Shown: positions 6,617 to 25,254 of the stretch, one piece after another
How the letters are laid out: each line of letters opens with the position of its first letter
Position numbering within the stretch: the stretch's first letter is position 1
NCBI GenBank assembly: GCA_016180645.1
Contig: JACPAV010000005.1
Location: 124,001 to 186,916, forward strand
Length of the DNA: 62,916 nucleotides
DNA from: Nitrospirota bacterium
GTDB lineage: Bacteria; JACPQY01
Direction: 5' to 3'
The notes under the pieces: model-generated
What the model was told of the DNA's origin: nothing
What the model saw: only the letters and a program-made list of their open reading frames with translations
Database searches by the model: none
Program-made: the position numbers and the translations under genes

Positions 6617-6747
6617 CCCCGCGTGACCCCGCACCCACCTCAATGGAAAAGTGGACAAGTGGACGAGTGCGCGCACATCACGGATGGCCGCTGCTTCACC
6701 GCCCGATCACCCGGACACTGGGCCACCTCCAAAAGGATAGCTGCAAA

Positions 6748-8720: not shown

Positions 8721-10385
8721 ATGGGCGGGATCTGCGGCATCCTCAACGCTACCGGCCACGCCTCGACCGGGGATCTGCACACGATGCTGTTCATGCTCTC
8801 CCACCGCGGCATCGGCGCTCCCGGCGCGTGGTCCTCCACCCCCGCGGCGCTCGGTCATTGGGATTCTCACACCCTTGACCCGGAACGTCGGGGGGTCCAG
8901 CCCTTTCACGACGGTTCCAACGGCCCTTGCATCGTCTTCGATGGGCGCCTCGACCACCGGGATGCCTTGCTGTCCGATCTGTGCCTCGATCGCGCAACGG
9001 ACGTTGAACTCGCGCTGGCCGCCTACTTGCGTTGGGGAGACGATGCATGGACGCATCTCCTCGGCGACTTCGCGCTGGCCCTCTGGGACCCGCGCGAGGA
9101 CTGCCTGCTACTGGCGAGGGACCCCGTCGGCGTCAGGCCTCTCTTTTACTCCGTTTGCCCGACCCGATTCGTTTTCGCCTCGGAGGCCAAAGCGATTCTG
9201 GCTATGACGGATGTCGTTCGCGCTCCGGATCCGGAGAGCATGGCGGAACTGAAGCGATATCGTTTCCGCCGTCATGAGTACACGTTTTTCCAAGGTATCC
9301 TCCGGGTGCGCCCCGGCCAGAGGCTCAGAGTCGACCGGCGAGGCATCGACCGGCGCGCATTCTGGAAGCCCGTGTGCTCCCCTCGCCCGAACGGCATGGA
9401 GCCGGAGGAGGCCCACAACCAATTCAGAAGACTCTTCATCGAGGCGGTGCGAGACCGGCTTCCGGCCCGCGGAACGGCGGCGATCATGCTGTCCGGAGGT
9501 TTGGACTCCTCTTCCATTGCGGTGGCCGCCTCCCATGCCCGCGGTCTGAAGACGACCGGCTGCCCCGCGCGTCTGGAAGCCTACACGCTGCTCTGGAAGG
9601 ATGGAGAGGACGAACGACGCCTGAGCCGGATCGCGGCCGAGAAGGCCGGCCTCCACGTATCCCCTGTGATGTTGGACGATGTGGAACTCGATCCCACCCC
9701 CGCGTTGGTCTTCGAACACGAGACGCCGCTTCTCAACCCCATCGACCAGGTCTACGGCAAGCTGTACCGCGCGGCGGCCGCAGCCGGTCATCGCATCCTT
9801 CTGAACGGAGAATGGGGAGATGACCTCCTCCACGGCGGGGCCTTCCTGGCCGACCTTCTCGTCTCGGGGCGCTGGAAGGCATTCGCAAGGCAGATCCGGG
9901 GTTTCCGCGACAACGAGGGGATCCCCATTCGCTCGATGTTGCGCTACCTCCTCGAATGCCTTCTCCTGCCGCGCCGGGATACCCCGAAATTCGCCACCCA
10001 CGCTCAAGAGCAAATCTACGAAGCGGTCTTTGTCCCTCTCAAACTGCTGGCCATCGAGAACCTCGAACGCGGGGCCGCCGCGCATGGCATCGAAATCAGA
10101 CTTCCCTATCTGGATCTCCGGCTCATCGAATTCCTGTTTCGGGTCCCCGGCGAATGGCTCGCTGAGGAAGGAATCGGCAAACAACCGCTTCGGAAAGGTT
10201 TGGCCGACCTGCTGCCCGGGGAGATTTCCGGACAGCCCCGCAAAGACAATACGCCCTTGTTCCGCGTGCCCTCGACCTTCCCGGCGTCAGGACGGGAGGG
10301 CGATATGAGAGCCTACTCTTCCGCCTGGTCCGCCAAGGCGGAAAGCGAATGGCGATCCGTCTGGTTCGGCCGGCCGGCTAAGTAG
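8721..10385 (+). CDS. Asparagine-synthetase-like lasso cyclase C1
   Basis: HRG, DGRLD, GDFALALWD, ARDPVGVRPL, PP-loop LSGGLDSS, RLPYLD; no Cys at position 2. Confidence 0.85.
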   Translation: MGGICGILNATGHASTGDLHTMLFMLSHRGIGAPGAWSSTPAALGHWDSHTLDPERRGVQPFHDGSNGPCIVFDGRLDHRDALLSDLCLDRATDVELALAAYLRWGDDAWTHLLGDFALALWDPREDCLLLARDPVGVRPLFYSVCPTRFVFASEAKAILAMTDVVRAPDPESMAELKRYRFRRHEYTFFQGILRVRPGQRLRVDRRGIDRRAFWKPVCSPRPNGMEPEEAHNQFRRLFIEAVRDRLPARGTAAIMLSGGLDSSSIAVAASHARGLKTTGCPARLEAYTLLWKDGEDERRLSRIAAEKAGLHVSPVMLDDVELDPTPALVFEHETPLLNPIDQVYGKLYRAAAAAGHRILLNGEWGDDLLHGGAFLADLLVSGRWKAFARQIRGFRDNEGIPIRSMLRYLLECLLLPRRDTPKFATHAQEQIYEAVFVPLKLLAIENLERGAAAHGIEIRLPYLDLRLIEFLFRVPGEWLAEEGIGKQPLRKGLADLLPGEISGQPRKDNTPLFRVPSTFPASGREGDMRAYSSAWSAKAESEWRSVWFGRPAK

Positions 10386-10437
10386 CAGAGCGTTCAGGCT
10401 CTGCAAGCAGATGCGCGCAAAGACTCTTGTGCGCATC
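10385..10437. terminator. Two tandem hairpins between convergent C1 and precursor A1
   Basis: GCAGAGC/GCTCTGC (10385-10404) and GATGCGCGCAA/TTGTGCGCATC (10410-10437); no clear U tract. Confidence 0.45.
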
Positions 10438-10438
10438 C

Positions 10439-10633
10439 TTAGTTATGGTTGCTGAAGGCGGTCTTGTTCGTCGGATCTTTTTCGATGGATCCCCCTCCCC
10501 CGCGCGTCAACGCCGTCAGATCGCCGTATTCAATCAGCCGTGGAGCGGCGTAGCGTTGCCGAAGGCCGGTTGGACCGGCACTCCGGAGGGATCCAACGCC
10601 TGTGCCCTTCGAGCGTCTCCGCTTTTGAACCAT
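10439..10633 (-). CDS. Lasso peptide precursor A1 (64 aa)
   Basis: Leader YAAPRLIEYGDLTALTR (YxxPxL...G...T-2); core GGGGSIEKDPTNKTAFSNHN with acceptors E7/D9; GGAGG upstream. Confidence 0.88.
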   Translation of the reverse strand: MVQKRRRSKGTGVGSLRSAGPTGLRQRYAAPRLIEYGDLTALTRGGGGSIEKDPTNKTAFSNHN

Positions 10634-12330
10634 GCTTCCTCCCAAGAGTTTCTCGCTGCCGCCCGCCAGAGCCTCATGGCCCCGCCGGGAGTTCCGTTCT
10701 TGTAGCCACATTCGGCCAGTTTGTTCGCCCAGAAAGCCGTGGCCACCGCCTTGCTGCGCCGCGCCGCGGTTCGCTCCGGAAGGATGCCTCTCAAACCCTC
10801 ACGAAGGAGCCGTTTCCCAACCCCTGCCCGAATCCGCATCCCGGCAGGCATCCTGAATACCAGTTCGACCAAACGCCGGTCCAGAAAAGGAAAACAAACT
10901 TCCACCCCTTGATACGCGGCGCCCATGTCGAACGATTCCAGCGTCATCGTATGGTAGCAGCCGAAGAGGGAGCCGTAAAGTTCCCTTTGATTGCACGTGG
11001 GGAAGACCGGACCTCCGGTGTTGGGCAGAAGCAGATACCGGAGCGCCCGCATCAACGCCGCCCTCCAATTCCCGACGTCGCTTTCCCCGATCCGTCGGAT
11101 CTCCCGGTAGAACTCCACCGGCCGGCCGGCCCGGATCAGGTCCCCAAGAAAACTCATGCCGGCCATCATCTGATCGCCCCAGAATCCGGTGAACACCCTT
11201 CGCGCGCCCCGCTTCGCCGCCGCCCCGAACATGCCGACGTAAAGATTCGGATCCTGCACCTCCACGAACGGCGACTCCAATTCGACCGCAAGCCGGTCCA
11301 GATGGTCCGTCGGCCGGATATCGTCCGCGTCCACCACCGCATTCGGAAGCTTCAGACACGCCGCGGCCGGCCCAAAATGTTCCCTCTCATTCTCAAACGC
11401 GCCAAAAACGACCGACTGTGTGTGCAGGCGGGATCGGTCCTCACCTTGTGCCACGTGCGAAGCGGCAGCGGCGATGGAGGTGGAGTCCAAGCCTCCCGAA
11501 AGCGTGAAGACAACGTTTCCCTCCTTGGGAATTCTCCGCCGAACGCCCTCCACAAATACCTTTCGGAAACGGCTCAACCACGCGGACTCGCTCAAACCTC
11601 CCATGGGCGGCCCGTGGGGAGGAACCCAATACGTCTCGCACCGCAAACGGTCCTCCTCTACGCGCATTCGCTCTCCGGGCAGAACGCGCCGTATCCCCTC
11701 GAAGAAACTGTTCTCCAGTGCTCGGAACTTGAACCGCTCGTATTCCGCCATTTTCAGTTCGCTTGGCCGGCACGGGACCCCCGGCACGGCCAGAATGGCT
11801 TTGGCTTCCGACGCGAAGATGAATCTTCGCCCATCCCGATAGTAGAAAAGAGGCTTGACCCCCAGGGGATCTCGGGCCAGCATGAGGCGGCCGCGTGGTC
11901 CATCCCACACCGCCAGAGCGAAATCCCCGAACAGCCACTTGGGGAGGTCCCACTCGAACTGCCGATACGCCGCCGCCAGCGCGCCTTCGGTGGTTCTCCT
12001 CAGATCCGCCGACGAGGCGGCCGTGTTCGAGCGGCGCGGGAAACCCTCATGCCCGCGTGCGCTGCCTTCGCGCCCTCGCCCCGCCGCGCGGCTGATCACA
12101 TCCACGTTGTCGATCCGGCCGTCCATCACCATACTGACCCCATCGGAGCTCAGCGGGCGGAAGGTCGTCTCATCGACCACCATGAGGGCGTGGACGAGTC
12201 CAACGGGGCCATCGCGAACGATCTTCAACCCGTCGGGCGCCCGGTGCCGAAGGGCATACCCCATCCGCTCCAAATGATCCGCGGGAGCCCCGCGGCCGTC
12301 CACCTGGAGAATACCGGCTATGCCGCTCAC
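10534..12330 (-). CDS. Asparagine-synthetase-like lasso cyclase C2
   Basis: GTG start (M)SGIAGIL, HRAPDG, DGRIDN, LSGGLDST, FPFLDRRLVE. Confidence 0.87.
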   Translation of the reverse strand: MSGIAGILQVDGRGAPADHLERMGYALRHRAPDGLKIVRDGPVGLVHALMVVDETTFRPLSSDGVSMVMDGRIDNVDVISRAAGRGREGSARGHEGFPRRSNTAASSADLRRTTEGALAAAYRQFEWDLPKWLFGDFALAVWDGPRGRLMLARDPLGVKPLFYYRDGRRFIFASEAKAILAVPGVPCRPSELKMAEYERFKFRALENSFFEGIRRVLPGERMRVEEDRLRCETYWVPPHGPPMGGLSESAWLSRFRKVFVEGVRRRIPKEGNVVFTLSGGLDSTSIAAAASHVAQGEDRSRLHTQSVVFGAFENEREHFGPAAACLKLPNAVVDADDIRPTDHLDRLAVELESPFVEVQDPNLYVGMFGAAAKRGARRVFTGFWGDQMMAGMSFLGDLIRAGRPVEFYREIRRIGESDVGNWRAALMRALRYLLLPNTGGPVFPTCNQRELYGSLFGCYHTMTLESFDMGAAYQGVEVCFPFLDRRLVELVFRMPAGMRIRAGVGKRLLREGLRGILPERTAARRSKAVATAFWANKLAECGYKNGTPGGAMRLWRAAARNSWEEAWFKSGDARRAQALDPSGVPVQPAFGNATPLHG

Positions 12331-12361
12331 AACACCCCCATCGCCACTGGATTCGAAAGAA

Positions 12362-12655
12362 CTATCGGAGGCGAACCAACCCCTTGCCCGCAAGCGTCCG
12401 CGCCAGCGTGAGGATGTCGCGTTGGGCCCGCTCCGCCGTTACGCGGTAGTTCCGCAACAGTCTCCTGCCGATCGCCTCAACGGCCTCCCCGCGCGCGATC
12501 CCTTTCCATATCAGCGCCGCGGCATCTTGGAGACCGTAATACCTTCCCTTCCGGAGGTCCAGAAGAACGATTTCTCCTCCCACTTCGCGCCAGACCACAT
12601 CCGGGGAGATCATCGCCCGCGATCCTACGCTGATTCTCCTTTTGTGATGCGCCAT
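12362..12655 (-). CDS. Lasso B1 / PqqD-family RiPP recognition element
   Basis: WREVGGEIVLLDLRKGRYYGL...IW...L...GLV pattern. Confidence 0.9.
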   Translation of the reverse strand: MAHHKRRISVGSRAMISPDVVWREVGGEIVLLDLRKGRYYGLQDAAALIWKGIARGEAVEAIGRRLLRNYRVTAERAQRDILTLARTLAGKGLVRLR

Positions 12656-13147
12656 TCAGACCGCGCTCGTATTCAGGCGGCTGCCGGCGCGCAGCCGGCT
12701 GCCCTTGAGGGTTTCGCGCGAGGAGGACGCGGCGACTGCCAGAAGGGGCTTCACTCGGCCGAACCGTCCGGCCCGCATCACGTCACGGCTCCCCTCCCGC
12801 ACCCAGGCATGCCCGTGCAGTCGACCTCTCTCCGGCCTCGCTGAGAGTCGCAACTCGACTCCAGGCGCCCCTCCCAAGAGCCAGTAGGCCGACAGTGCCC
12901 GGCGAAGGCAGGAACGCTCCCCCGGCACGAGGGGGTCCACCCTTTCAATCCAATGCGTGACCGCCGCAACATCCGAATCGACCGGTGCAGCGTGGTCGGC
13001 CCGCCATTGCAAGGCCCGGAGAATGATTTTGAAGGACACGACTCGGAGGGCCAGTTCGCAGACTCCCACGGCGGCGAGAGCGCGCACCGCGCGTCGCCTC
13101 TCGCGGGCTTCCAGGCGCCGGAAGCGCTGAAGCCGACCACGGCTCAT
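12656..13147 (-). CDS. Lasso B2 leader peptidase (transglutaminase-like)
   Basis: SCLRRAL catalytic Cys, HAW motif; ATG 13147 overlaps the ABC stop. Confidence 0.88.
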   Translation of the reverse strand: MSRGRLQRFRRLEARERRRAVRALAAVGVCELALRVVSFKIILRALQWRADHAAPVDSDVAAVTHWIERVDPLVPGERSCLRRALSAYWLLGGAPGVELRLSARPERGRLHGHAWVREGSRDVMRAGRFGRVKPLLAVAASSSRETLKGSRLRAGSRLNTSAV

Positions 13148-14925
13148 GCCGATGATCGCGCCAGTGCGATCGGCCGAGTCTGGCGTTCCTCGGCCCGGAC
13201 ATGCAGCATCCACAGGTGGTGATAAAGCCCTCCACGCGCCAGGAGATCGTCATGCGTCCCTTGTTCGATGATTCGGCCTGCATCCATCGCGAGAATAATA
13301 TCCGCGTGTCGGATCGTGCTCAAGCGATGCGCCACGGCGAGAACGGTCCTCCCCCTCCCCCATTCGGCGATCGCGTCCTGCACTCGCCGGTCCGTCTCGC
13401 TGTCCAGAGCGGACGTCGCTTCATCCAGAAGGAGAACCCGGGGGTCCTTCAGAACGGCCCGCGCGATGGCAATCCGCTGCCGCTCTCCCCCGGAAAGCAT
13501 CACCCCCCTCTGTCCGATCACGGTGTCCAGCCCTCGCGGCAGCGCCCGGATGAATTCCGTGACGCACGCGATTCGACAGGCATCCTCAATCTCTTTCTCG
13601 GTGGCGTCCAGCTTTCCATAACAAAGGTTTTCGCTCACCGTTCCCCCAAAGAGGATCGTCTCTTGAGGAACCCACGCGATCTGGCGATACAGACTTTCCT
13701 TCCGAACCGTCCGAATATCCTCGCCGTCCATCTCGATGCTCCCCGCGGACGGTTCGTAGAACCCGTGGATCAGTTGGATGAGAGTACTCTTCCCCCCGCC
13801 CGTCGGACCGACGACCGCCGCCACGCTCCCCGCCGGAATGTCCAGGCTCACGCCTCGAAGCACCGGGGGACCGTCGGGGTAGGAAAACTCGACCTCCCTC
13901 ACACGAATTCGACCTCGCAGGCGTGGAAGGGCTCTCGCTTCGGTCGGCTTCGTCGGGTCTCCCGGTGTCTCCAGGAGCGAGAGCACACGCTCCGAGGCGC
14001 CTTGCGCCTCCTTCAGACGACCCACAAGGCTGGTGGCGGTGATGAAGGGTCCCATGAGGAGACCGCCATACAGGGCGAAGGCCACCAGATCTCCCGCGCT
14101 CATCCCCCCCTCGATGACCTGCACACCTCCGTACCACACCATCCCCGCCGCTCCCATCACCCCCAGGAGCGTCAGCCCCGGGGCCAGGATGGCATTCACC
14201 GCCGCCCTGCGGAGAGCAAATCGGACCCCTTCCCACACTTGGGTCCCGAACCGTTCCGCCTCGAATTCTTCCCGTTGGAACGATCGCACGGCGCGGATGG
14301 AGGAGAGCGCTTCCTCCGCGGTGGAAAGCGCCTCGGCCGAGCGATCATGGTAGTCGCGCGAGAGCCGCCGCATTCTCCGGCCGGACCACTTCGCCGCCAC
14401 CACAACGGCCGGGACGACCGCCAGAACCCAGAGCGAGAGGCGCGCGTTGAGATAGATCAGCAGGGCCGTCGCCCCCGAGAACGTTACCGCATGCCTGGCC
14501 AACTCCGAAGGCACGGTTTCCAGGAAGCTCTGGAGGGCGCCCACGTCGTTGGAGAGGCGCGACACGAGCTCTCCCGTCTTGTGACGCGAGAAATAGTCGA
14601 ACGGTTGCGCCTCCAACCGCTCGAAGAGCCGGACCTTGAGCCGCGCGCCCACCCGCTGCCCGAACCGAACAACCAAGTAGGCATGACCCACTCCGAATCC
14701 GGCCTGGAGAATGTAGAGGGCGCCGACCACGGCCATCACGCCGGGAAGCGCGGCGAGATTCTTCTCCGAGGCGATGACATCCACCAAGCGCCTGGCCTGC
14801 CACAAAAGAACCAGATTCGCGCCGGCGCCGAGCATCTGCAGGGCCGACGCCGCCAAAAGGGAGGGGGTCTCGGGCCGAACGAACGGAACGAGACTGCGCA
14901 GAAATCCCGGCAAACTTCCGGTCAA
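13144..14925 (-). CDS. ABC exporter, fused permease/ATPase
   Basis: TM domain, GPTGGGKST, LSGGERQR, LLLDEATSALD. Confidence 0.95.
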   Translation of the reverse strand: MTGSLPGFLRSLVPFVRPETPSLLAASALQMLGAGANLVLLWQARRLVDVIASEKNLAALPGVMAVVGALYILQAGFGVGHAYLVVRFGQRVGARLKVRLFERLEAQPFDYFSRHKTGELVSRLSNDVGALQSFLETVPSELARHAVTFSGATALLIYLNARLSLWVLAVVPAVVVAAKWSGRRMRRLSRDYHDRSAEALSTAEEALSSIRAVRSFQREEFEAERFGTQVWEGVRFALRRAAVNAILAPGLTLLGVMGAAGMVWYGGVQVIEGGMSAGDLVAFALYGGLLMGPFITATSLVGRLKEAQGASERVLSLLETPGDPTKPTEARALPRLRGRIRVREVEFSYPDGPPVLRGVSLDIPAGSVAAVVGPTGGGKSTLIQLIHGFYEPSAGSIEMDGEDIRTVRKESLYRQIAWVPQETILFGGTVSENLCYGKLDATEKEIEDACRIACVTEFIRALPRGLDTVIGQRGVMLSGGERQRIAIARAVLKDPRVLLLDEATSALDSETDRRVQDAIAEWGRGRTVLAVAHRLSTIRHADIILAMDAGRIIEQGTHDDLLARGGLYHHLWMLHVRAEERQTRPIALARSSA

Positions 14926-15095
14926 TCTCGGGTCTTGACGCAGCTCGCGTTCCCAACCGTGCGGCAGGTGAAACCCGGAGATCGCGAGGAGTCACAGACG
15001 ATCGCCAACGCCTCGACCATCTTGCTGTAGACGAGTTCGGGTTTCTTATACGGCTTCCGGCCTATCGGTGATTTCCGATCTTGATTCTTCATCAT
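14922..15095 (-). CDS. RiPP precursor A3 (57 aa, Cys-containing; not in ORF track)
   Basis: Hand translation MMKNQDRKSPIGRKPYKKPELVYSKMVEALAIVCDSSRSPGFTCRTVGNASCVKTRD; YxxPxL leader; starts 13 nt after the rSAM stop and its TGA overlaps the ABC TTG. Confidence 0.85.
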   Translation of the reverse strand: MMKNQDRKSPIGRKPYKKPELVYSKMVEALAIVCDSSRSPGFTCRTVGNASCVKTRD

Positions 15096-15108
15096 TCGAT
15101 CCCTTCGG

Positions 15109-16245
15109 TTATCCGGCTGTTGAATTGTCGCATGTTACCTGTCCGCAGGAACATTCGCTGCGGTTTCCAGATCCCTCCGTCAGCCCCGCGGCTCGCAGGG
15201 GAGCTGAGGTCCTCCCCTCTTTGCTCTGAACGGCCTGATACACAACCTCCGCCTGCTCACAACAGGTCGGCGAAGGCCCCTTGAGATCCCCGGTCTCCAG
15301 ATGGGCCACGCCGGTGCATCGGCTGCAATAATCCTTCACGGAGCAACTCCGGCAGGTTTTCAGGTCCCCGAATCGAAGCGCGCGGATCTGCTTCAACTGT
15401 TCTTCTCCCCACAGATCTCCGAAGGAGCGTTCCCGCAGGTTTCCGATGGCCACCCGCATCGCCACACACGGCATGAGATCTCCATAGGGAGAAATGTACG
15501 CGGAAGACGACCCCGCGCCGCACAGCGGATCGTCATTCTGATAGTCCCTGAGCACAAACTCTTCCGCAAATCCGGGGGTTGTCTCCTTGATGAAGCAGGC
15601 GAGCTCCGGAGGCATGAGACGGAGGCTTTGCGGCGATCGGTCGCCGTTGTCCTTCGGCACGATCGAAAGATCGCTTCGCAACTTTGCGCCGATCTTTTCC
15701 CCCAAGGCCATGACGTCATGGTACTGATCCTGATTCTGTTTCATGATCGGCATGTTCATGTACGTTCGGACGCCCCGTTCATTCAAGAGGCGAATTCCCC
15801 GCACGGACTTCTCGAATGAACCCTTCCTGAGCGTGATCGAATCGTGAATGTCCGGATGCGCTCCATAGATGCTCACCAGAACCGCGAGGGGCTTCCAAGA
15901 GGCGATTTCGTCGGCCAGCGTTCCGTTCACCATGGTCGCAGTCGTCAGCAGGCGAAGGGCGAAGCCCAGTTCGCGCGATCGCCGGGCGATCTCGATGAAA
16001 TCTCGCCGCATGAAGATCTCCCCCCCGCTGAATGTGATGAACAGCGTGCCCGCACTCGCGAGCCCCTCCAACACGCCATACACCTGATCCGTCGTCAATT
16101 CCGGCCGGTCCATGACCACGCGGTAGCAATGCACGCAGTCCAGGTGACACACGTTCGTGACGTCCCAGTGCACGGTGAGAGGGATGGCACGCTCATGCGC
16201 CTTGTCCAGAATCGTCTCGTAGTAGTCCAGAGTCTTCACGGCCAT
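15109..16245 (-). CDS. Radical SAM/SPASM peptide maturase
   Basis: CHLDCVHC, SGGE, SPASM CGAG...ISPYGDLMPC...CRSC...YCSRC. Confidence 0.92.
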   Translation of the reverse strand: MAVKTLDYYETILDKAHERAIPLTVHWDVTNVCHLDCVHCYRVVMDRPELTTDQVYGVLEGLASAGTLFITFSGGEIFMRRDFIEIARRSRELGFALRLLTTATMVNGTLADEIASWKPLAVLVSIYGAHPDIHDSITLRKGSFEKSVRGIRLLNERGVRTYMNMPIMKQNQDQYHDVMALGEKIGAKLRSDLSIVPKDNGDRSPQSLRLMPPELACFIKETTPGFAEEFVLRDYQNDDPLCGAGSSSAYISPYGDLMPCVAMRVAIGNLRERSFGDLWGEEQLKQIRALRFGDLKTCRSCSVKDYCSRCTGVAHLETGDLKGPSPTCCEQAEVVYQAVQSKEGRTSAPLRAAGLTEGSGNRSECSCGQVTCDNSTAG

Positions 16246-16246
16246 G

Positions 16247-16537
16247 TCATGTGCCCCCTTCGGCAACCAGGAGTTTCTTGGAGGTAAGGGTGGCCAGCAG
16301 TTCTTCCACGTCTTTCAGCGCCGTCTCCGCGTCCACCTCGAAGGCGTCGCTGAGTCGTTGGGCCATGGCGCCGGCCGTCATCGAACCGTCCGCCAGCGAC
16401 CACACAAAACTTCCCGTCTCGTTCAGGATGTGAACCTCCTGTGTCGAAGGATCGACGATCACGGCTTCTCCGTCCACGATCCGATGCGCCACATCGGGGG
16501 AGCGGCGGATCGTGGCTACGCCATTCCCCGCGCTCAT
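16247..16537 (-). CDS. PqqD family protein (second RRE)
   Basis: RIVDGEAVIV...LNETGSFVWSLADG...DVEELL. Confidence 0.9.
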   Translation of the reverse strand: MSAGNGVATIRRSPDVAHRIVDGEAVIVDPSTQEVHILNETGSFVWSLADGSMTAGAMAQRLSDAFEVDAETALKDVEELLATLTSKKLLVAEGGT

Positions 16538-17262
16538 GCCGTGGCCTCCTCGAGAAACGGCTCGATGAGGTCACTCAAGTTCAGCGTCAACTTGAAGGCC
16601 GGTACCCGTTCCAGAAACCGCAGCATCCGTTCCATCAATTGGTCCGGAGTCACCGCGGCGCCTTCCACCTGGGGGCGCAGGAGGAGGTCCGCCACGGCGC
16701 GCGCGGGCGAGAGTCTTTCGCGCCTGGATTTCTCCCCTTGCGCGAGCACAAATACCGCGTGGACGGGGTACCTTGGACCCTCCAGCGCCACGGGGGCCCA
16801 GGCCAGAGGACGTGAGTCCGTGAGCCCGTGAGCCCGTGAGCCGGAAGGATGGATGCAGACCAGGTCGTCGTGGAGAATGGGCCGGGCGAGGCGCGAAAGC
16901 GTGGTGGTCTTCCCCGCTCCGGAAGGGCCGCAGAAGAGGGTGGCTTCACCGTTCTTCATGGCGGCTCCGGCATGCAGGACGAAACCGCCCTCCCTATATG
17001 CAAGCACGGTCCTCACGATCCGAAAGGCGTTCGTGCGCCCGAAGGGCTCAAATCCCGGCTGCACGTTGAACTTCGCCAAACCGGCCTCCCAGTCCATCCG
17101 GCCCGCATAGTGCTCGGTCTGAACGACGAGCGAATGGGTTGAATCTTGAATGACCGGGATGGCCGCCCCCGAATCCGGCTCGGCCGAGATCACGATCTGC
17201 ACGGCCCCTGCCCTCGTACCCTGCTCCGAATCAAACCCTCTCACCTCCCATGGCACCATCAT
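16534..17262 (-). CDS. HPr-kinase-related P-loop protein K3 (rSAM-associated type)
   Basis: VLHAGAA, GPSGAGKTT, ILHDD. Confidence 0.75.
   Translation of the reverse strand: MMVPWEVRGFDSEQGTRAGAVQIVISAEPDSGAAIPVIQDSTHSLVVQTEHYAGRMDWEAGLAKFNVQPGFEPFGRTNAFRIVRTVLAYREGGFVLHAGAAMKNGEATLFCGPSGAGKTTTLSRLARPILHDDLVCIHPSGSRAHGLTDSRPLAWAPVALEGPRYPVHAVFVLAQGEKSRRERLSPARAVADLLLRPQVEGAAVTPDQLMERMLRFLERVPAFKLTLNLSDLIEPFLEEATA
16811..16842. repeat. Intragenic 8-bp tandem repeat (CGTGAGYC) x4
   Basis: cgtgagtc cgtgagcc cgtgagcc cgtgagcc. Confidence 0.85.
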
Positions 17263-17443
17263 AGGAGAAGATCACCCCGGTGTCCAACCATGGATGGTGC
17301 GGCACCGATCCTGCCAAGCGAGCCAGGGAAGGCGAGCGCTGAAGATCGGGGCCAGCCATGGATGGTGCGGTACTTGGCGATACAAGGCAGACAGGAAGTC
17401 TGCCCTTTCAACTCTCTCGACCCGGTTGTGTTATCCCTCTCCC

Positions 17444-18271
17444 ATGCGGTATTCAAGCTCGATGCCGGGAGTCTCAAGCAACGGGAGCAAGCGCGTGCTG
17501 GCCCGCCACAGGTTTCCCAGCGGCCGGATTGGATTCGAGGCCTTCGAAAACCGGCAGCGATACGAACTCCGGTGGGCGGGGGCTGCGCGCGCCCTTGTGC
17601 CGAAAACCGGCCTACGCGCGCGGGTCATTCCGCAGCCCAACGCCCGCCCCATCACGCTGGCGGTACTCCGGCATATCGTGGCGGCCTATGCATCGAGCCT
17701 GAGGGGAGTGGAATCCCTGCACGCCACGGTCGTGTCGAATCATCATGGCGCGATCGCTCTACTGGGACCCTCAGGTGAAGGAAAATCGACGCTCGCGCGC
17801 CACTTCATGATGCGGGGTTGGACCCTGCACACGGACGACATCCTCTACCTCAGATTCTCCCAACGTTCCGTGTGGCCTGCCCGCCGCCGCGCCTGGTTCA
17901 AGGTCGCCCCGGAGTCAGCGCTCCGTGCGCGCGGGGACCGGGACTATGACCCGAACTTCGGAAAGCGAATTACCCTTCTCCCGCCTCCTAAAGCGGCCAA
18001 GCCCATTCGGGCCTTCATTCGGTTGAGCCGCCGGCGCGCTTGCCGAATTCATGCCACACCCGTGAGCCCATCCCAAGCAGCCCTCCACCTCATGGCCAAC
18101 GCCTACAACGACATTCTTTGCCCACCCCCCGTCCTGGCGCGTCAGTTCCGTTGGTCCGCCCGGCTGGCCCAAGCGGTCCCGCTCTGGCAGCTCGAGTACC
18201 CGTCGGGCACACGCCACCTGGGTCGAATCGAGCTGTCCTTGGCGAACCTGCTCAAAAGCCTCCCACGGTGA
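17444..18271 (+). CDS. HPr-kinase-like protein K2 (paralog of K1); start uncertain (17444 or 17462)
   Basis: YELRW, LHATVV, GPSGEGKST, LHTDD, YDPNFGK, LEYPSG; colinear with K1. Confidence 0.83.
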   Translation: MRYSSSMPGVSSNGSKRVLARHRFPSGRIGFEAFENRQRYELRWAGAARALVPKTGLRARVIPQPNARPITLAVLRHIVAAYASSLRGVESLHATVVSNHHGAIALLGPSGEGKSTLARHFMMRGWTLHTDDILYLRFSQRSVWPARRRAWFKVAPESALRARGDRDYDPNFGKRITLLPPPKAAKPIRAFIRLSRRRACRIHATPVSPSQAALHLMANAYNDILCPPPVLARQFRWSARLAQAVPLWQLEYPSGTRHLGRIELSLANLLKSLPR

Positions 18272-19902
18272 CCGGAATCTGCGGGCTTCTCAGTCCCCGC
18301 CCTGAACAGGCCTCGGGGAAACTTTGGAACATGCTGTTCATGCTCAGCCATCGAGGAAACGGCATTCCTCAAATGATCCATCGGCCCCCGGCGGCTTTGG
18401 GCTTGCTTTCGCAAGACGCAACATCCAACAGAATATCTTTGCGGAGCCGTACGACATGCCTCTTCGACGGTCGCCTGGACAACCGTCGGGAGATGCAATC
18501 GGCCTTGAACACGCATGGAGCGACGGATGCCGACGTCGTTGGCGCCGCGTACGACCGGTGGGGACCCTACGCATTCCGAAAATTGAGGGGAGAATACGCG
18601 CTGGCACTCTGGGACCCGGAAAACCGGCGCCTGTATCTCGCGCGAGACCCGGTCGGTCTGCGCCCCCTCTACTATGCCTGCTCGCACGACACCCTCTCCT
18701 TCGCCACCGAGGCCAAGGCCCTGCTCAGCCTGCCTGACCTTCCTCGAAAGCCGGACACGGAGCGACTCCATGAAATGAACACAGGACGCTACCGATCAAG
18801 CGACCGAACCTTCTTCGAGGGCGTCCAAAGAATCGTCCCCGGCGAGTTCCTTCAGGCGACCCGGGAAGGAGTTGCGCGCGGGCGGCTGTGGGACCCCGAT
18901 CTCCGATCATCCGTCCGTTTTCCCTCCCCCGAAGGCTATCGCGCACAATTCCGCGAGCTGTTCTTCAACGCCGTGCGGCGGTGCATGCCGCGAAAGGGAA
19001 CCGTGGGCGTTCTCCTGTCGGGAGGCATCGATTCTTCCTCTGTAACCGCCGTTGCCGCCGAAATCGCGCGCCGTGAAGGATCGGGCGTTTCGGTCGAAGC
19101 CTTCTCGCTCTATTCCGACCGCTTCCCCGACGAGCGACTCTATTGCGAGGAGGTCGTTCGGACGGCCGGAATCCGGGGCCACGCCATTCGAGCCGACGAC
19201 ATCAGTCTTTCGCATGATCTGTCACAGCGGCTCTTTGAACAGGAAATCCCGCCCGTTCCGCCCGAAGCCAATCTTTTTGACCGCGTATACAAAGAGGCCG
19301 CCCGCCGAGGAGTGCGGGTGTTACTGAGCGGCCACTGGGGAGACCAGGTCATGCTGAGCCACGCTTTGCTCGCGGATCTCCTTGCCTCGGGTAGGTGGTT
19401 CGAAGCCTGGAAATATGTGCGCGGCTACCGTCGCCAGGATCGCGCCGCGGCAGGCCCCCTCCTCCGGTGCGCGGCGTCCTTTCTCGTCCTGCGACGACGA
19501 AGCACGCCGGACTTCCCCAGCCGCGCGCAAAAAGAGGTCTATGAAAACGTCTTCGAGCCGGTCAACGTGCTCTTCCGCGAAGCTCTTGAGCTCGCATCCG
19601 CCCACCGTGGCCTTCGGTTTCAGATGCCGTTTCTCGACCTCGACCTGATCGAATTCGTCTTGGCGATACCCGCCACGCAGCGGGTCAGCAACGGCGTCGG
19701 AAAACAACTGCTGAGGGAATCCCTGTCCGATCTCCTGCCCGCCAGGGTGCGCGAGCGAAAGGACAAACGGGACTACACGCTGTCCATTCCGCCCAGGCTT
19801 GCCCAAGCCGGATTCAGCGGCGACACCCCCGACGACCTTTCGGAGCACTGGTTCCGGCATGCGCGGGAGCAGTGGTCCAAAGCATGGTTCGACAACCCCT
19901 GA
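18268..19902 (+). CDS. Asparagine-synthetase-like lasso cyclase C3 (paralog of C1)
   Basis: GTG start (M)TGICG, MLFMLSHRG shared with C1, LSGGIDSS, MPFLD. Confidence 0.85.
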   Translation: MTGICGLLSPRPEQASGKLWNMLFMLSHRGNGIPQMIHRPPAALGLLSQDATSNRISLRSRTTCLFDGRLDNRREMQSALNTHGATDADVVGAAYDRWGPYAFRKLRGEYALALWDPENRRLYLARDPVGLRPLYYACSHDTLSFATEAKALLSLPDLPRKPDTERLHEMNTGRYRSSDRTFFEGVQRIVPGEFLQATREGVARGRLWDPDLRSSVRFPSPEGYRAQFRELFFNAVRRCMPRKGTVGVLLSGGIDSSSVTAVAAEIARREGSGVSVEAFSLYSDRFPDERLYCEEVVRTAGIRGHAIRADDISLSHDLSQRLFEQEIPPVPPEANLFDRVYKEAARRGVRVLLSGHWGDQVMLSHALLADLLASGRWFEAWKYVRGYRRQDRAAAGPLLRCAASFLVLRRRSTPDFPSRAQKEVYENVFEPVNVLFREALELASAHRGLRFQMPFLDLDLIEFVLAIPATQRVSNGVGKQLLRESLSDLLPARVRERKDKRDYTLSIPPRLAQAGFSGDTPDDLSEHWFRHAREQWSKAWFDNP

Positions 19903-19956
19903 TCGATCCTGCCCCCGGTCCGTGATCGCATTATCCTCCGATGGAACGCTCCTGCA

Positions 19957-20097
19957 TCAATCCGACCCCGTGGCCCTGGTTTTGTTCGTTTCACTCTTAA
20001 CCGTCCCCTTGGCCTTCGTCAGTGTCCGAAGGTCGCCATAGGCGATGAGGCGTGGCGCCTTGTAGGTTCTTCGCCGCTTCCTTTTGTTCCGAACCAT
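19957..20097 (-). CDS. Lasso peptide precursor A2 (46 aa)
   Basis: MVRNKRKRRRTYKAPRLIAYGDLRTLTK leader; core AKGTVKSETNKTRATGSD with E8 acceptor; GGAGG upstream. Confidence 0.88.
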   Translation of the reverse strand: MVRNKRKRRRTYKAPRLIAYGDLRTLTKAKGTVKSETNKTRATGSD

Positions 20098-21746
20098 ATC
20101 TCCTCCCAACGTTCTCTCGTGAAAGCCCTCCAAGGCCTCATGGCTCTCCCCACGGGCCGGCGTGGGAGCCCGGCTTCTTCCTGCATGGCCTCCCAGAAAT
20201 CGGTCCAATCGCCCTTGCCCTTTCGGCTGGCGATGAAATCCGGGAGGATGCCGGCCAAGCCATCCCTCATCAATCTTTTTCCGATCCCATCGCGCACCCG
20301 CTCTTCCGCCGGAACGGCGAACGCAAACTCCACCAGGCGCCTGTCGAGGAACGGATACCGCACCTCGATCCCGCGGAACGCGGCGCCCAGATCGGCCGAC
20401 TCGAGGGCCATCAGATTGTACAAGCCAAACAGGGCGGAATGCAATTCCCTCTGATTGCACGTGGGGTAGAAATGCCCGCCCAAGCCGGGAAGCACAAGAA
20501 ACCGCAACATCCGGCGGAGGCTTTCAAGCGTGCCGCCCGTGTAGGTGCGGCTGAGAATACGGAATTCCTTCCAAAGCGCCCCCCACTGCCCCGAGCGGAG
20601 CAGATCACCCAGGTAGCCGGTCCCCATCATGGCCTCGTCGCCCCAGAGACCCACCAGCAGAACGCGGCCGAGATCCGCCGCGCGTCGAAACAATCCCTCG
20701 TAGTAGTTGGGGTCGTACACTTCCACAAAAGGCGTTTCAAGTTCATACGCCAGTCTATCCACATGCTCTCTCAACCTGAAGGCTGAAGCATCCACCACGA
20801 TATTCGGCAGGTTCCACATCTCGGCCAGCTTCCCGAAATAGCGGGACTCATCCGGAAAACGCCCGGGCACGCCTGAAATCGTGTGCAGCCCAAGCCCATG
20901 CCCCCCCTGTCCATCCGCCCCGCGCTTCGCGTGGAGGGCGGCCGCCGTGATGGACGTGGAATCCAGGCCACCCGAAAGCGTGACCACCATGTCTCCCTTT
21001 CCGGGCATCCTGCACCGGACGGCCTCCATGAACAGCTTTCTGAATCGCCTGAGATACACGCGACGCCCGTCGAGCCTGATCGGTTCGCACGTTGGCGGAT
21101 GCCAGTACGAGGCGCGGAGGATCCTGCCTTTTTCTATCCCAATCGCCTCCGCCGGGAGAACCCTCCGAATGCCTTCGTAGAAGGTGAAATCCATGCCTCG
21201 AAACCGAAAGCGGTCATACTCCTCGAGCCTGGATTCGCACGGCCGACAAGGAACTCCGTCCACCGCCAGAATCGCCTTTGCCTCGGACGCAAAGATGAAC
21301 CGTCTCTCCTCCACCCTGTAGAAGACCGGCTTCACCCCGGCCGGATCCCGCACAAGCAACAATCTCTCCCGATTTGCATCCCAAATCGCGATCGCGAAGT
21401 CGCCCAGGAGCCACCGGGGGAAGTTCTCTCCCCAGCGCCCATATGCGCTCCAAACCACTTCCTCCGTCGTCTCCGCCCGATCCCCGAAGCGCCTGCGCAG
21501 AACCTTCTTCAAAAGGTCCGCATTGTCGATTCGGCCGTCCATGACCAGAGTGATCCCATCCCGCGAGATCGGACGCGGCGTGGTCCCGTCCACCTTCACC
21601 ATGAGATGACCGAGGCCCGCCTCCCCCCCCGCGAAGACGGATGAACCGTCCGGTCCACGATGGGCGAGAGCGTCCAGCATCGGTTGCAGGTTCATCTCGC
21701 CCACGAGCGTTCCGTCGAAATGCAGAATCCCGGCTATGCCGCTCAT
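20019..21746 (-). CDS. Asparagine-synthetase-like lasso cyclase C4 (paralog of C2)
   Basis: MSGIAGIL, HRGPDG, LSGGLDST, PTCNQREL shared with C2, YPFLDRRLVE. Confidence 0.87.
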   Translation of the reverse strand: MSGIAGILHFDGTLVGEMNLQPMLDALAHRGPDGSSVFAGGEAGLGHLMVKVDGTTPRPISRDGITLVMDGRIDNADLLKKVLRRRFGDRAETTEEVVWSAYGRWGENFPRWLLGDFAIAIWDANRERLLLVRDPAGVKPVFYRVEERRFIFASEAKAILAVDGVPCRPCESRLEEYDRFRFRGMDFTFYEGIRRVLPAEAIGIEKGRILRASYWHPPTCEPIRLDGRRVYLRRFRKLFMEAVRCRMPGKGDMVVTLSGGLDSTSITAAALHAKRGADGQGGHGLGLHTISGVPGRFPDESRYFGKLAEMWNLPNIVVDASAFRLREHVDRLAYELETPFVEVYDPNYYEGLFRRAADLGRVLLVGLWGDEAMMGTGYLGDLLRSGQWGALWKEFRILSRTYTGGTLESLRRMLRFLVLPGLGGHFYPTCNQRELHSALFGLYNLMALESADLGAAFRGIEVRYPFLDRRLVEFAFAVPAEERVRDGIGKRLMRDGLAGILPDFIASRKGKGDWTDFWEAMQEEAGLPRRPVGRAMRPWRAFTRERWEEIWFGTKGSGEEPTRRHASSPMATFGH

Positions 21747-21832: not shown

Positions 21833-24160
21833 TCAGGCGGCTGGAGGACCTCCCTGAGGGGCCCTCACCGAAGAACCGCCCTTGGCCGCTCCCGGCTCCG
21901 CCGGATCGGATCCTTTCCGCTTCTTGCGGAATCCTTTCCACCACACCCTCCCCGCCCGCGCCATCTCTTTCGCGCCATCACGCGCCCGCTCCTGCCATCT
22001 CTTGTCCTCGAAGTCGGCCTCTGGAACGTAACGGTAGTACTGGTAGCGATACTGGTACCGCGAATAAAAGTACGGCCCATGATAGTCCACGTCGTTCAGC
22101 ACGATTCCAATGATGTTCCCCTTCGCATTCCGAAGCTGATCGATCGTCCGCATGAGAAGATCCCGCGAGGTCTTCCCGATCCGATAGACCAGCAGGATCC
22201 CGTCCACGTGCGGCGCGAGCACGGTGGAGTCCGCCACGGGCATCGTCGGCGGGCAATCCACAATCACGGTCTCGAAGGTTTCCTTCAGCTCCTTGAGAAT
22301 CCCTCGTTGCATGAGCAGGTCCAGCGTGGTGGGCGGATGCACGGTGGTCGGTCCGGCGTTCAGAATGTGGAAATTGTCCAGCCCCGGACTCATCTCCAGC
22401 GTCTTAAGGTCCAGTCCATTGGCCAGGAAGTGTTCCACCCCCTTCACGCACTGCCGCCAGTCGACCCCCTCCGAAGCCACATTGGTCAACCCGACATCGT
22501 TCTCGATGGGGAAGATCTTGTGCATCGTCGGCCTCCGGGTATTCCCCTCCACCAACACCGTTTTCGAGTTTCCCTGGGCAAACGAAAGCGCGAGGTTCGA
22601 CGTGACAAACGACTTGCCCTCCTGCGGCGTGGCGCTCGTGACCAGAATGACCCGCAGGTTTTCTTTCCGCCGAAGCACCATGCGCAGGCTCTGGAAATGC
22701 TCGCTCACCGGCGACTTCGGCCAATGATGCACGACCATGGTGGTGGCATACGTCAAATCCGGCGCGATCATCCTTTTCCGCAAACGCCTCTCCTGCTCAA
22801 TCGTTTCCTGAAGGTTGAAGTGCGGCACGATGGCCAGCACGGGCAACTTGAGAAACGACTCCACCTCGTGAACGGTGTCAAGCGAGAAGTCGAACGATTC
22901 CCGCAGAAACGCGAGTCCCATCCCGAGAATCAAGCCCACCGCCATCATCGAAAACACCGGCAGGAGGGATACCCTCTGCACCGGTGCGGTCGGCGTCACC
23001 GCCAGTTCGACGATCCGCACGTTGGTACTCTGCATCGTCCCGCCGAGCTGGGCCTGCTGGTACGCCTCGTCGGCGTGGTCGATCATGGCCTGGAGCCGTG
23101 CCACCTGCCGCTCCAGCCGCCCCAGCTCGATCTGTGACTCAAGGAACAGGGCGTTCTTCCCTTCCAGATCCAGCCTGTCCTGGACCCATCGGTTCTCCCT
23201 CTCCTCCACTTCACGAAGGGCATGATCCAAAAGTTCAAAGAGCTGTCTCGCGAGCGACCGGATATGGTCCTCCGCGAAACGGATGTCCGGGTGGGACGCC
23301 GTGAGCAGGATTTCCTTTTCCCGTTTCTCCAGGAGGGCCGATACGAGCGATCCTCGGATACGCTCGTACTCGGCGGGTGCGCCGGTCCACTCGAAAGACG
23401 GCACCGTTTCCCGCTCCATGAGATCCTCACGTTGAAGGAGATCCATCAGCTCCGAGATCCGTCGCCGTCGTTGGGCCAAGTCTGAGAGCCCATCCTCGAC
23501 TTCGGTCATCCGCCGCAGGTTGACCTCGACGTTCTTCTCCACGCCGAGAATCCCGTGTTCGCGCCGAAAACGGCTTACCGCCTCCTCCGCGGTCTTGAGC
23601 ATGACCTCCATCGCTTCCTGGCTCTTGCTGCTCACCAGCCGGGTCTCGCGGCTCTTCTCGGCCGCCCGCTCGAGCCGGTAGTCCTTGAACGCCGTCGCCA
23701 CCCCGTTGGCCATATCCCGGGCCTCGCGCGGGTCGGAGCTCACCGCCAGGATGTCCAGGATTCGCGTCGAGGCGCGCTGCCTGGCCGTTATCCGGTCCTG
23801 AAGCTTGTGCAGAATGGCCAACATCTTCTCGTCCTGGAGCGCCTGCTCAACACCGATGTCCGCCGGGATGCTCCCGATCCTCTTCGCCATGGACAGCATC
23901 ACCGGCAAACTCGTGATGACATGAATCTCCGTCGCGATCTCAACGGACTCATCCAGGTAAACGTAGGAATTCACGTTGAAGGGCGCCTGTTCGAACTCGA
24001 TGGTGGACCGCGCCCGGAATTGGGCGGTCTGTTTTCGCATGAACGCAAGACCCACCAACATGGAAACGCCGGCCGTAAGGGCGATGATCCACTTCCGCTT
24101 CCGGAACACCCGGAAGACGTCCGGGAGCGTCTGAACCCTCGCTGAGGGAATGTCCGTCAT
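21833..24160 (-). CDS. Polysaccharide co-polymerase / tyrosine autokinase (Wzc/GumC family)
   Basis: Two TM helices around a coiled-coil region, SATPQEGKS, VDCPP, Tyr cluster YFYSRYQYRYQYYRY. Confidence 0.9.
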   Translation of the reverse strand: MTDIPSARVQTLPDVFRVFRKRKWIIALTAGVSMLVGLAFMRKQTAQFRARSTIEFEQAPFNVNSYVYLDESVEIATEIHVITSLPVMLSMAKRIGSIPADIGVEQALQDEKMLAILHKLQDRITARQRASTRILDILAVSSDPREARDMANGVATAFKDYRLERAAEKSRETRLVSSKSQEAMEVMLKTAEEAVSRFRREHGILGVEKNVEVNLRRMTEVEDGLSDLAQRRRRISELMDLLQREDLMERETVPSFEWTGAPAEYERIRGSLVSALLEKREKEILLTASHPDIRFAEDHIRSLARQLFELLDHALREVEERENRWVQDRLDLEGKNALFLESQIELGRLERQVARLQAMIDHADEAYQQAQLGGTMQSTNVRIVELAVTPTAPVQRVSLLPVFSMMAVGLILGMGLAFLRESFDFSLDTVHEVESFLKLPVLAIVPHFNLQETIEQERRLRKRMIAPDLTYATTMVVHHWPKSPVSEHFQSLRMVLRRKENLRVILVTSATPQEGKSFVTSNLALSFAQGNSKTVLVEGNTRRPTMHKIFPIENDVGLTNVASEGVDWRQCVKGVEHFLANGLDLKTLEMSPGLDNFHILNAGPTTVHPPTTLDLLMQRGILKELKETFETVIVDCPPTMPVADSTVLAPHVDGILLVYRIGKTSRDLLMRTIDQLRNAKGNIIGIVLNDVDYHGPYFYSRYQYRYQYYRYVPEADFEDKRWQERARDGAKEMARAGRVWWKGFRKKRKGSDPAEPGAAKGGSSVRAPQGGPPAA

Positions 24161-24210
24161 GTCCCTATGACCGGAAGCCCTTCAACGCCTTGAGAAAGGC
24201 TTTCGGAGGA

Positions 24211-25254
24211 TCACTTCTCTTTCTCTGGGCCGGGTGCCGCGACGTGCTTCCCGTCGTCCGAAACGGCCGGCGAATCCTGCACCTGCTCCTTGATGTAAAG
24301 CATCGGGCTCCGCTTCAGGTCGAGAACCTTCACCGCGGAAAGGCGCGCCACCGGCTCGCCCACCAATTCGACCACCGGCTTGAGAGGATTCGCCGAACTG
24401 GTCTTTAAGACCCGCGCCAGTTTCTCGTTCGACAACCGCACGAGAGTTCCAGGTGGATACGGTGTGATCCGGCGCAGGGCGGCAATCCAGACGTCTTTGG
24501 GAAACTTCTCCTTCCCCTCCGAAACGAGAATCTGAAATCCCTCATAGAAGGATTTTGGCTTCCGGTACGGGCGGAAGTGCGTGATGCTCTCGATCGTATC
24601 GCAGAAGCCGATGATCCGCGCATAGGTGTCGATCTCGTCGCCTTTGAGCTGCTGGGGATACCCGGTCCCGTCCTGCCGTTCCTGCTCCTGATAAACCAGC
24701 CGCGCAAACGCATCGCTCAGTTGCGATCCTTCCAACAACCTCCGGCCCTCCGTGGGATGGCTTTCAACGATGCGCCGTTCGCGCTCGGTCAGCGGCCGCG
24801 GCATGTCGATCAGGTCGGCCGGCAGCTCGCACATCCCGATGTCGTGGAGCAGCGCCCCGGCCCCGAGTATCAGGTTGTCCCGCCCCCGAACGTCCAGTTC
24901 GAAGCCCAAGGCCATGGACAGAATGCCCACGTTGAGCGAATGTTCGGCGATGAAATCTCCCTGGTACGCGGCCACGTCGTACTGAAAGACCTTTTCGATC
25001 CACAGCTCGGGGCGGCTCTCCATGTCGGTAAGAACATCGGTCAGGAGATTGAACAAATACGGCTCGTCAAAACTGCGCTGATTCTTCAGCCTGTCCAGAA
25101 TTTTCTGGAATTCCTCCTTCAGACCCAAGTACTTGGAACGAACCATCTCCCGCTGTTCCTTCATCGCAGCGGAAAGCTCGTTCAAAGCCAGATCGCCGGC
25201 CGGCAAAACGGGACTCATCCGGTGCATAATACCTTCTCTCACCCTCCTTCGCAA
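24211..25254 (-). CDS. HD-GYP domain protein; start may be ATG 25227
   Basis: HSLNV, LLHDIG, ERQDGTGYP, RPYR, YPPGTLVRLS. Confidence 0.85.
   Translation of the reverse strand: MRRRVREGIMHRMSPVLPAGDLALNELSAAMKEQREMVRSKYLGLKEEFQKILDRLKNQRSFDEPYLFNLLTDVLTDMESRPELWIEKVFQYDVAAYQGDFIAEHSLNVGILSMALGFELDVRGRDNLILGAGALLHDIGMCELPADLIDMPRPLTERERRIVESHPTEGRRLLEGSQLSDAFARLVYQEQERQDGTGYPQQLKGDEIDTYARIIGFCDTIESITHFRPYRKPKSFYEGFQILVSEGKEKFPKDVWIAALRRITPYPPGTLVRLSNEKLARVLKTSSANPLKPVVELVGEPVARLSAVKVLDLKRSPMLYIKEQVQDSPAVSDDGKHVAAPGPEKEK

Follow-up and report, generated by a model that had tools for sequence, protein, structure and literature searches.

Lasso peptide precursor genes starting within the last codons of cyclase genes in a Nitrospirota genome

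Overlapping precursor and cyclase genes in two lasso modules

We analyzed a stretch of 62,916 nucleotides (hereafter, the window) from the genome of a Nitrospirota bacterium (assembly GCA_016180645.1, contig JACPAV010000005.1, positions 124,001 to 186,916), which holds two lasso peptide modules. In each of them, the 3' end of a cyclase gene overlaps the beginning of a precursor gene on the same (minus) strand. Cyclase C2 (protein P0002, 598 amino acids, 10534..12330, with a GTG start at 12330) ends in the codons TGG GAG GAA GCA TGG TTC (WEEAWF), followed by a tail of 30 amino acids (aa) across precursor A1, while cyclase C4 (P0001, 575 aa, 20019..21746) ends in TGG GAG GAG ATA TGG TTC (WEEIWF), followed by a 23-aa tail across precursor A2. 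Shifted by one base, both ends read GGAGG-N4-ATG-GTT and open reading frames (ORFs) of 64 aa (A1, 10439..10633, ATG at 10633) and 46 aa (A2, 19957..20097, ATG at 20097). The Shine-Dalgarno (SD) sequences, GGGAGG at 10638..10643 for A1 and at 20102..20107 for A2 (both minus strand), are built from the Trp-Glu-Glu codons of C2 and C4, respectively, and lie 4 nt from the ATG. The overlaps span 100 nt (A1/C2) and 79 nt (A2/C4) and include the leader motifs YAAPRL and YKAPRL. The original prediction, made from the DNA letters alone, had placed the starts of the precursor ORFs inside these WEExWF codons, and the sequence, the extent of the overlaps and the scores given below agree with it.

Both peptides scored above the curated cut-off of the lasso-leader model NF033521 (25.5 bits for A1 and 20.5 for A2, with a cut-off of 19), and a search of the whole genome with this model gave five matches, of which only A1 and A2 passed the cut-off. 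With the cleavage sites placed by the rule of a Thr at position -2, which we take to apply here, the predicted cores start with Gly1 (A1, with Glu7/Asp9) or Ala1 (A2, with Glu8), so that each has a Gly or Ala first and an Asp or Glu at positions 7 to 9. The leaders read YAAPRL..YGDL..LT-R and YKAPRL..YGDL..LT-K and carry the YxxPxL motif, as described for lasso leaders in the available part of PMC13381572. The cluster also encodes an RRE (B1, PF05402) and a transglutaminase-like B2 peptidase above cut-off (NF033537/PF13471). A homolog search with the precursors returned one match, P0333, which comes without genomic context. The A1 overlap was reproduced by contigs from the public runs X2, X3 and X4 and the A2 overlap by X2 and X3, with no differences in either case, although all these runs belong to one study and X1 to X3 are possibly the source of this DNA. 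An assembly slip, which could have accounted for the missing stop after WF, was ruled out by these identical contigs. We consider it confirmed that A1 and A2 are lasso precursor ORFs that open within the last codons of the preceding cyclase gene. Separately, a 224-nt contig of run X2 (record 15) matched the A2 overlap (window positions 19955-20151) with 32 differences and no gaps, and might come from a related strain or a paralog.

On the opposite strand, a shorter cyclase paralog converges on each precursor. C1 (8721..10385, plus strand) faces A1 and stops 5 aa past WRSVWF, and C3 (18268..19902, plus strand) faces A2 and stops 3 aa past WSKAWF; the likely GTG start of C3, as placed by alignment, overlaps the stop of the kinase gene before it as GTGA. 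The kinases are HPr-kinase-like proteins encoded upstream of C1 (7740..8714, plus strand, with weak matches below cut-offs) and upstream of C3 (17150..18271, plus strand), the latter with a real start probably later than that of the longest ORF. Minus-strand genes upstream of C2 encode the RRE/B1 of the PqqD family (12362..12655, PF05402, with NF033530 as the best match but below cut-off), the leader peptidase B2 (12656..13213, NF033537 at 42 bits with a cut-off of 33, PF13471), which is the sole lasso-type B2 near both modules, and an ABC exporter with permease and ATPase (13144..14925, from family-model matches). Immediately past the A1 stop, between the converging A1 and C1, a predicted hairpin of 11 pairs (10410..10437, z score -2.99) is likely a terminator or a 3' stabilizer. 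Fold prediction gave nothing comparable after A2 (z -0.64), nor at the related locus of genome G001 described below (z 0.22).

A subfamily of paired, shortened cyclases

The best model for all four window cyclases was NF033535, at 274 to 329 bits and below its cut-off of 525, and a search of PDB recovered AsnB-fold relatives only. In a quick tree without bootstrap, C1 to C4 fell in a small subfamily of 22 sequences, which separated as one branch from 20 full-length relatives (SH-aLRT 100). Subfamily cyclases have around 550 to 600 aa and are missing two segments (~55 and ~40 aa) of the named lasso cyclases; all 22 members retain SGGxDS and GxxGD, and C1, C2 and C4 lack the N-terminal Cys. The subfamily is split into group Ca (n = 13, including C2 and C4) and group Cb (n = 9, forming one branch and including C1 and C3). 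Past the WxxxW motif there are 13 to 30 aa in every one of the 13 Ca sequences and 1 to 6 aa in all nine Cb sequences. The Ca tails extend beyond the conserved end of the family and do not align with one another, and their 13 to 30 aa compare with a mean of ~37 codons expected for neutral read-through. C2 and C4 are sister paralogs with 50% identity, and their two overlaps therefore represent retention after a duplication rather than independent origins.

Among 40 other genomes searched, only G001 holds the subfamily, with a matching layout of kinase, Cb, convergent precursor, Ca and RRE. All three loci seen as DNA present a convergent Ca/Cb pair around one precursor (8721-12330 and 18268-21746 in the window, 9462-12943 in contig C86 of G001). 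Three further Ca/Cb pairs are apparently co-located, as the contig sizes are equal within each pair (8159, 114070 and 4298), which suggests the same layout. When contigs of genomes and metagenomes were scanned with an alignment of the subfamily, there were, among the matches listed, only full-length cyclases and AsnB.

The modules resemble the split B1/B2 lasso clusters that include an HPr-type kinase and a nucleotidyltransferase, with which they share the YxxPxL leader, the Thr at -2, the predicted core with Gly or Ala first and Glu or Asp at 7 to 9, B1, B2, an AsnB-fold cyclase, an ABC exporter and a kinase. They differ in having a convergent cyclase pair per precursor, made of shorter proteins that remain below the NF033535 cut-off and form their own clade. 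The accessory set is presumably of the paeninodin-like kind. In our view, the convergent pair of shortened cyclases is a more unusual feature than the overlap itself. A tentative and rather unlikely interpretation is that these clusters are an undescribed lasso subtype in which both Ca and Cb, whose ATP-binding motifs are intact, would be needed, for example as a heterodimer compensating for the lost segments or for a second amide or adenylation step, and in which the ribosome binding site (RBS) would be built into the last Ca helix, so that the products are invisible to annotation. A literature search, mostly outside subscription journals, found no title or abstract start that describes doubled cyclases or precursor overlap in lasso clusters.

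Start sites and translation of the precursors

In the reading register of A1 and A2, each precursor codon is formed by the last base of one cyclase codon and the first two of the next, and it follows from the genetic code that ATG, GTG or TTG can appear only over a Trp or Cys codon (or TGA). A Trp codon doubling as the ATG is therefore forced once the start lies inside the cyclase ORF. Indeed, 64% of the Trp codons of the genome (12,553 of 19,527) give ATG, GTG or TTG in this register and 18% give ATG, and the pattern W..W...WF is common to C1 and C3, which overlap nothing. The informative parts of the pattern are the Glu codons and the codon ending in A. The residue after the first Trp is Glu in nine of the 13 Ca sequences and in none of the nine Cb sequences (a single contrast between two groups, not 22 independent tests), while the same position in full-length cyclases is mostly Leu, Phe or Met in our own alignment; TGGGAGG is invariant across C2, C4 and G001. 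Since formation of the ATG needs a codon ending in A before the Trp, the use of the rare GCA (8% of Ala codons, 17% before TGG) and ATA (3.6% of Ile codons, 6% before TGG) speaks for selected starts. Given the amino acids, the probability of the codon choice is ~0.095 for C2 and ~0.035 for C4, with a joint value of ~0.003 that includes the choice of GAG. GGAGG-N4-ATG was found on only 26 of the 19,527 Trp codons, so that the SD-ATG match is above chance. These codon statistics come from our own approximate gene set of 3,311 ORFs.

The 16S tail of this genome (contig C53) is canonical, and so is the anti-SD. The SDs of A1 and A2 both reach -10.2 kcal/mol, better than ~86% of 363 reference starts picked by a strict rule; 45 of these carry GGAGG, six of them with a 4-nt spacer. 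Upstream in-frame starts at 10645, 10711, 20109 and 20133 were considered and rejected, with weaker SDs of -3.0 to -7.5 kcal/mol. We regard it as improbable that the SD-ATG is a by-product of a W-E-E-x-W constraint on the protein, the precursor being translated from another in-frame start or not at all. The abundance of start-like triplets over Trp codons, the CTG found in G001 (see below) and the absence of all six A1/A2 start variants from a large protein collection would fit such a by-product, but the lack of Glu in Cb, the rare ATA and GCA and the weaker SDs of the alternative starts argue against it. Moreover, A1 and A2 are the only lasso leaders over cut-off in a genome that encodes B1, B2 and four cyclases, and their YxxP motifs lie inside the cyclase ORFs whatever start is used.

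The reading that we favor, with a probability of about 0.7, is that A1 and A2 are translated from their own RBS within the last conserved Trp-x3-Trp motif of the Ca cyclase, the cyclase tail being a neutral read-through. With the start set in the terminal motif, the cyclase would read through the precursor in a shifted frame until the first chance stop, and the resulting tail of 13 to 30 aa, unconserved, would probably be functionless. Ribosomes would load de novo on the precursor without reinitiation, so that the transcript would be shared and translation set separately for each gene. The energies required to open the RBS were 11.2 (A1) and 7.0 (A2) kcal/mol, with medians of 11.1 for reference starts (n = 150) and 14.4 for gene interiors, and no stable fold was predicted over the SD (z -0.75 and -1.20, long-range pairing being possible). 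The starts of C2 and C4 are less open (13.4), and that of C4 has no SD (-2.1 kcal/mol). A strong, open precursor SD together with weaker cyclase starts may yield an excess of substrate over enzyme, as a cluster for a ribosomally synthesized and posttranslationally modified peptide (RiPP) needs. Promoter scans gave no promoter-like site just upstream of A1 or A2. Probably, the ancestor of group Ca already had this layout, with a later duplication in this genome.

Several points weigh against this reading. With 4 nt, the spacer is among the shorter ones of the reference starts; the original prediction had already called the spacing short and the starts in need of confirmation, and while the first remains true, the rare codons, the SD energy and the six 4-nt spacers among 45 make the starts at 10633 and 20097 probably real, as judged from the sequence. 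The start region of C2 gave a duplex of -11.7, mostly from G runs, so that only C4 has a clearly weaker start. In G001, the start position of the precursor (locus L021, 11130-11348) reads GGAGG-N4-CTG, not ATG, and this precursor may instead begin at an ATG that lies on a preceding Trp and has a less strong SD. The DNA was seen for only 3 of the 13 Ca genes, the remaining 10 being assessed by back-translation of the protein tails with a leader profile (for which 75 unrelated motif windows served as the training set, with 300 shuffles and 308 control tails for comparison). By this method, the tails of P0004 and P0011 were incompatible with the leader motif, C2 itself obtained only 5.3 bits, and G001 was missed (0.4 bits, with the motif past the stop).

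For the other eight of the 10 tails known only as protein, YxxPxL is compatible with a shifted frame (10 to 24 bits, 0 to 3 of 300 shuffles), while 12 of the 308 control tails reached at least 7 bits. In six of the eight, this frame is in the register of A1 and A2 and in two it is in the other; P0005, P0007 and P0009 are close kin, and the eight positives amount to some five lineages. No ATG, GTG or TTG occurs in G001 from the Ca stop to YxxP, so that its precursor must overlap Ca. No lasso B2 was found at this locus, and none over cut-off elsewhere in the genome, which is 84% complete; the peptide also misses NF033521. This copy may be decaying, or CTG may be its natural start. Overlap length varies from 49 to 100 nt in the cases seen as DNA. 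The overlap thus appears to be a trait of the subfamily, without a fixed length, frame or start codon. The arrangement had been predicted to be conserved, and this stands for the overlap, given the G001 DNA and the eight tails, but not for the exact step from WEExWF to ATG, in view of the CTG of G001 and the two tails in the other frame.

The original prediction went on to propose that the overlap couples precursor to cyclase expression. Such coupling of translation could come about by cyclase ribosomes opening the precursor RBS, as in the MS2 coat-lysis type, or by backward reinitiation. The persistence of the overlap across four Ca subgroups would fit this, and the available part of PMC12548453 presents RNA unfolding as suited to larger overlaps, such as MS2 at -50 nt. 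Nevertheless, we find coupling unlikely. The accessible text of the same source gives reinitiation as most efficient from -4 to +3 nt, with a steep fall and its disappearance at -25 nt in one study, and that of PMC10666635 gives a range of ~-8 to +10 nt, whereas A1 and A2 start at -100 and -79 nt. Termination-reinitiation pairs (-4/-1 nt) are likewise co-directional and on one transcript, and the cluster has 4-nt overlaps of its own (14922-14925 and 18268-18271), but the precursor starts precede the end of the stop codon by 79 to 100 nt, beyond the distances at which reinitiation was measured. RNA unfolding, for its part, needs a closed RBS, whereas the A1 and A2 folds are unremarkable and their opening energies ordinary. 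Overlap length and frame also vary, and long overlaps are found in unrelated loci as well (see below).

The layout also resembles known long unidirectional overlaps, which, in the portions available of PMC3887535 and PMC10666635, are 3' extensions of the upstream gene by stop loss and typically uncoupled. As in those, the upstream gene of the window reads past its conserved end to a chance stop and has an unconserved tail; the difference is that the RBS and start are on the conserved terminal motif and not in a former spacer. The register is that of ATGA overlaps, for which the accessible part of PMC10666635 reports long overlaps to be depleted. It seems to us scarcely credible that a cyclase-precursor fusion is made by a programmed frameshift towards the 3' end of the cyclase gene. 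Ahead of the Trp start, the frame of the precursor has no stop for 55 codons in A1, 142 in A2 and 47 in G001, but stretches of this kind are frequent in the same register of this genome (46%, 15% and 51% of 2,086 genes, respectively), no slippery heptamer is shared and none was found for A2, and a good SD-ATG makes a frameshift needless. The fusion was rejected, as the upstream open frame has no conserved slippery heptamer.

Overlaps in unrelated loci and loss from annotation

As a background, we examined at least 160 loci of full-length cyclase-like genes, 143 with complete ORFs; the counts that follow hold among the matches listed. A precursor motif was found just downstream in 58 of the 143, with the last possible start inside the cyclase ORF in 11 of the 58 and YxxP itself inside it in six (five lineages), with an overlap of at least 59 to 137 nt. 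Long overlaps between cyclase and precursor recur, then, in unrelated taxa. The six loci (L087/L132, L090, L093, L103 and L138) are like the window in that the precursor comes directly after the cyclase and YxxP is in the cyclase ORF, but all are in the other register, with starts downstream of the final Trp of the cyclase and not on it, a pattern as expected from plain stop loss. The distance from the first base of the Tyr codon of the leader to the end of the cyclase stop is exactly 41 nt in L087, L090, L093 and L132, which represent three unrelated lineages.

Neither the six start variants of A1/A2 nor the two of the G001 peptide had an exact match in a collection of 15 billion proteins, which contains C2, C4 and the 56-aa peptide encoded at 14922-15092 of this contig. 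At unrelated loci (one start tested each, exact match), free precursors were on record in five of five cases and long-overlap precursors in one of five. Pooled, this makes 1 of 8 long-overlap against 5 of 5 free precursors and bears out the expectation that gene callers drop the overlapped ones. The loss is not absolute, because the overlapped precursor of L087 was annotated by NCBI as a lasso leader peptide protein. According to the available part of PMC6511847, RiPPER retains only ORFs that overlap annotated genes by 20 nt or less. We also noticed that P0341 (819 aa) shares a protein cluster with a lasso precursor of 50 aa (L038 type), a possible fusion or a clustering artifact.

While the overlap appears to be mechanistically ordinary, its practical value lies in mining, and the paired short cyclases are possibly new to lasso specialists. 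Of the sampled loci in which a precursor follows the cyclase, 6 of 58 (~1 in 10) have this layout, and a precursor is therefore probably hidden beneath the 3' end of some "orphan" lasso cyclases. Scanning cyclase tails in shifted frames would uncover such precursors, even from the protein sequence alone.

Other genes adjoin the modules. A nucleotidyltransferase (PF14907, 5218-6423, minus strand) and a PRMT-like methyltransferase (6643-7875, plus strand) next to module 1 are possible tailoring enzymes. Between the two modules (14922-17262, minus strand) there is a separate RiPP-like unit, with a peptide of 56 to 57 aa (14922-15092) that has a YKKP leader motif and three Cys, a radical SAM/SPASM enzyme (15109-16266), its own PqqD/RRE (16247-16537) and a ScmC-like kinase (16534-17262). 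The locus holds, in consequence, two RREs and three YxxP leaders, which raises the question of cross-talk, as studied in the available part of PMC13381572. Finally, Wzc/GNVR-like and HD-domain genes are found beside a lasso module both in the window (21833-25254, minus strand) and in contig C86 of G001 (13706-16921, plus strand), with opposite orientations relative to the lasso module.

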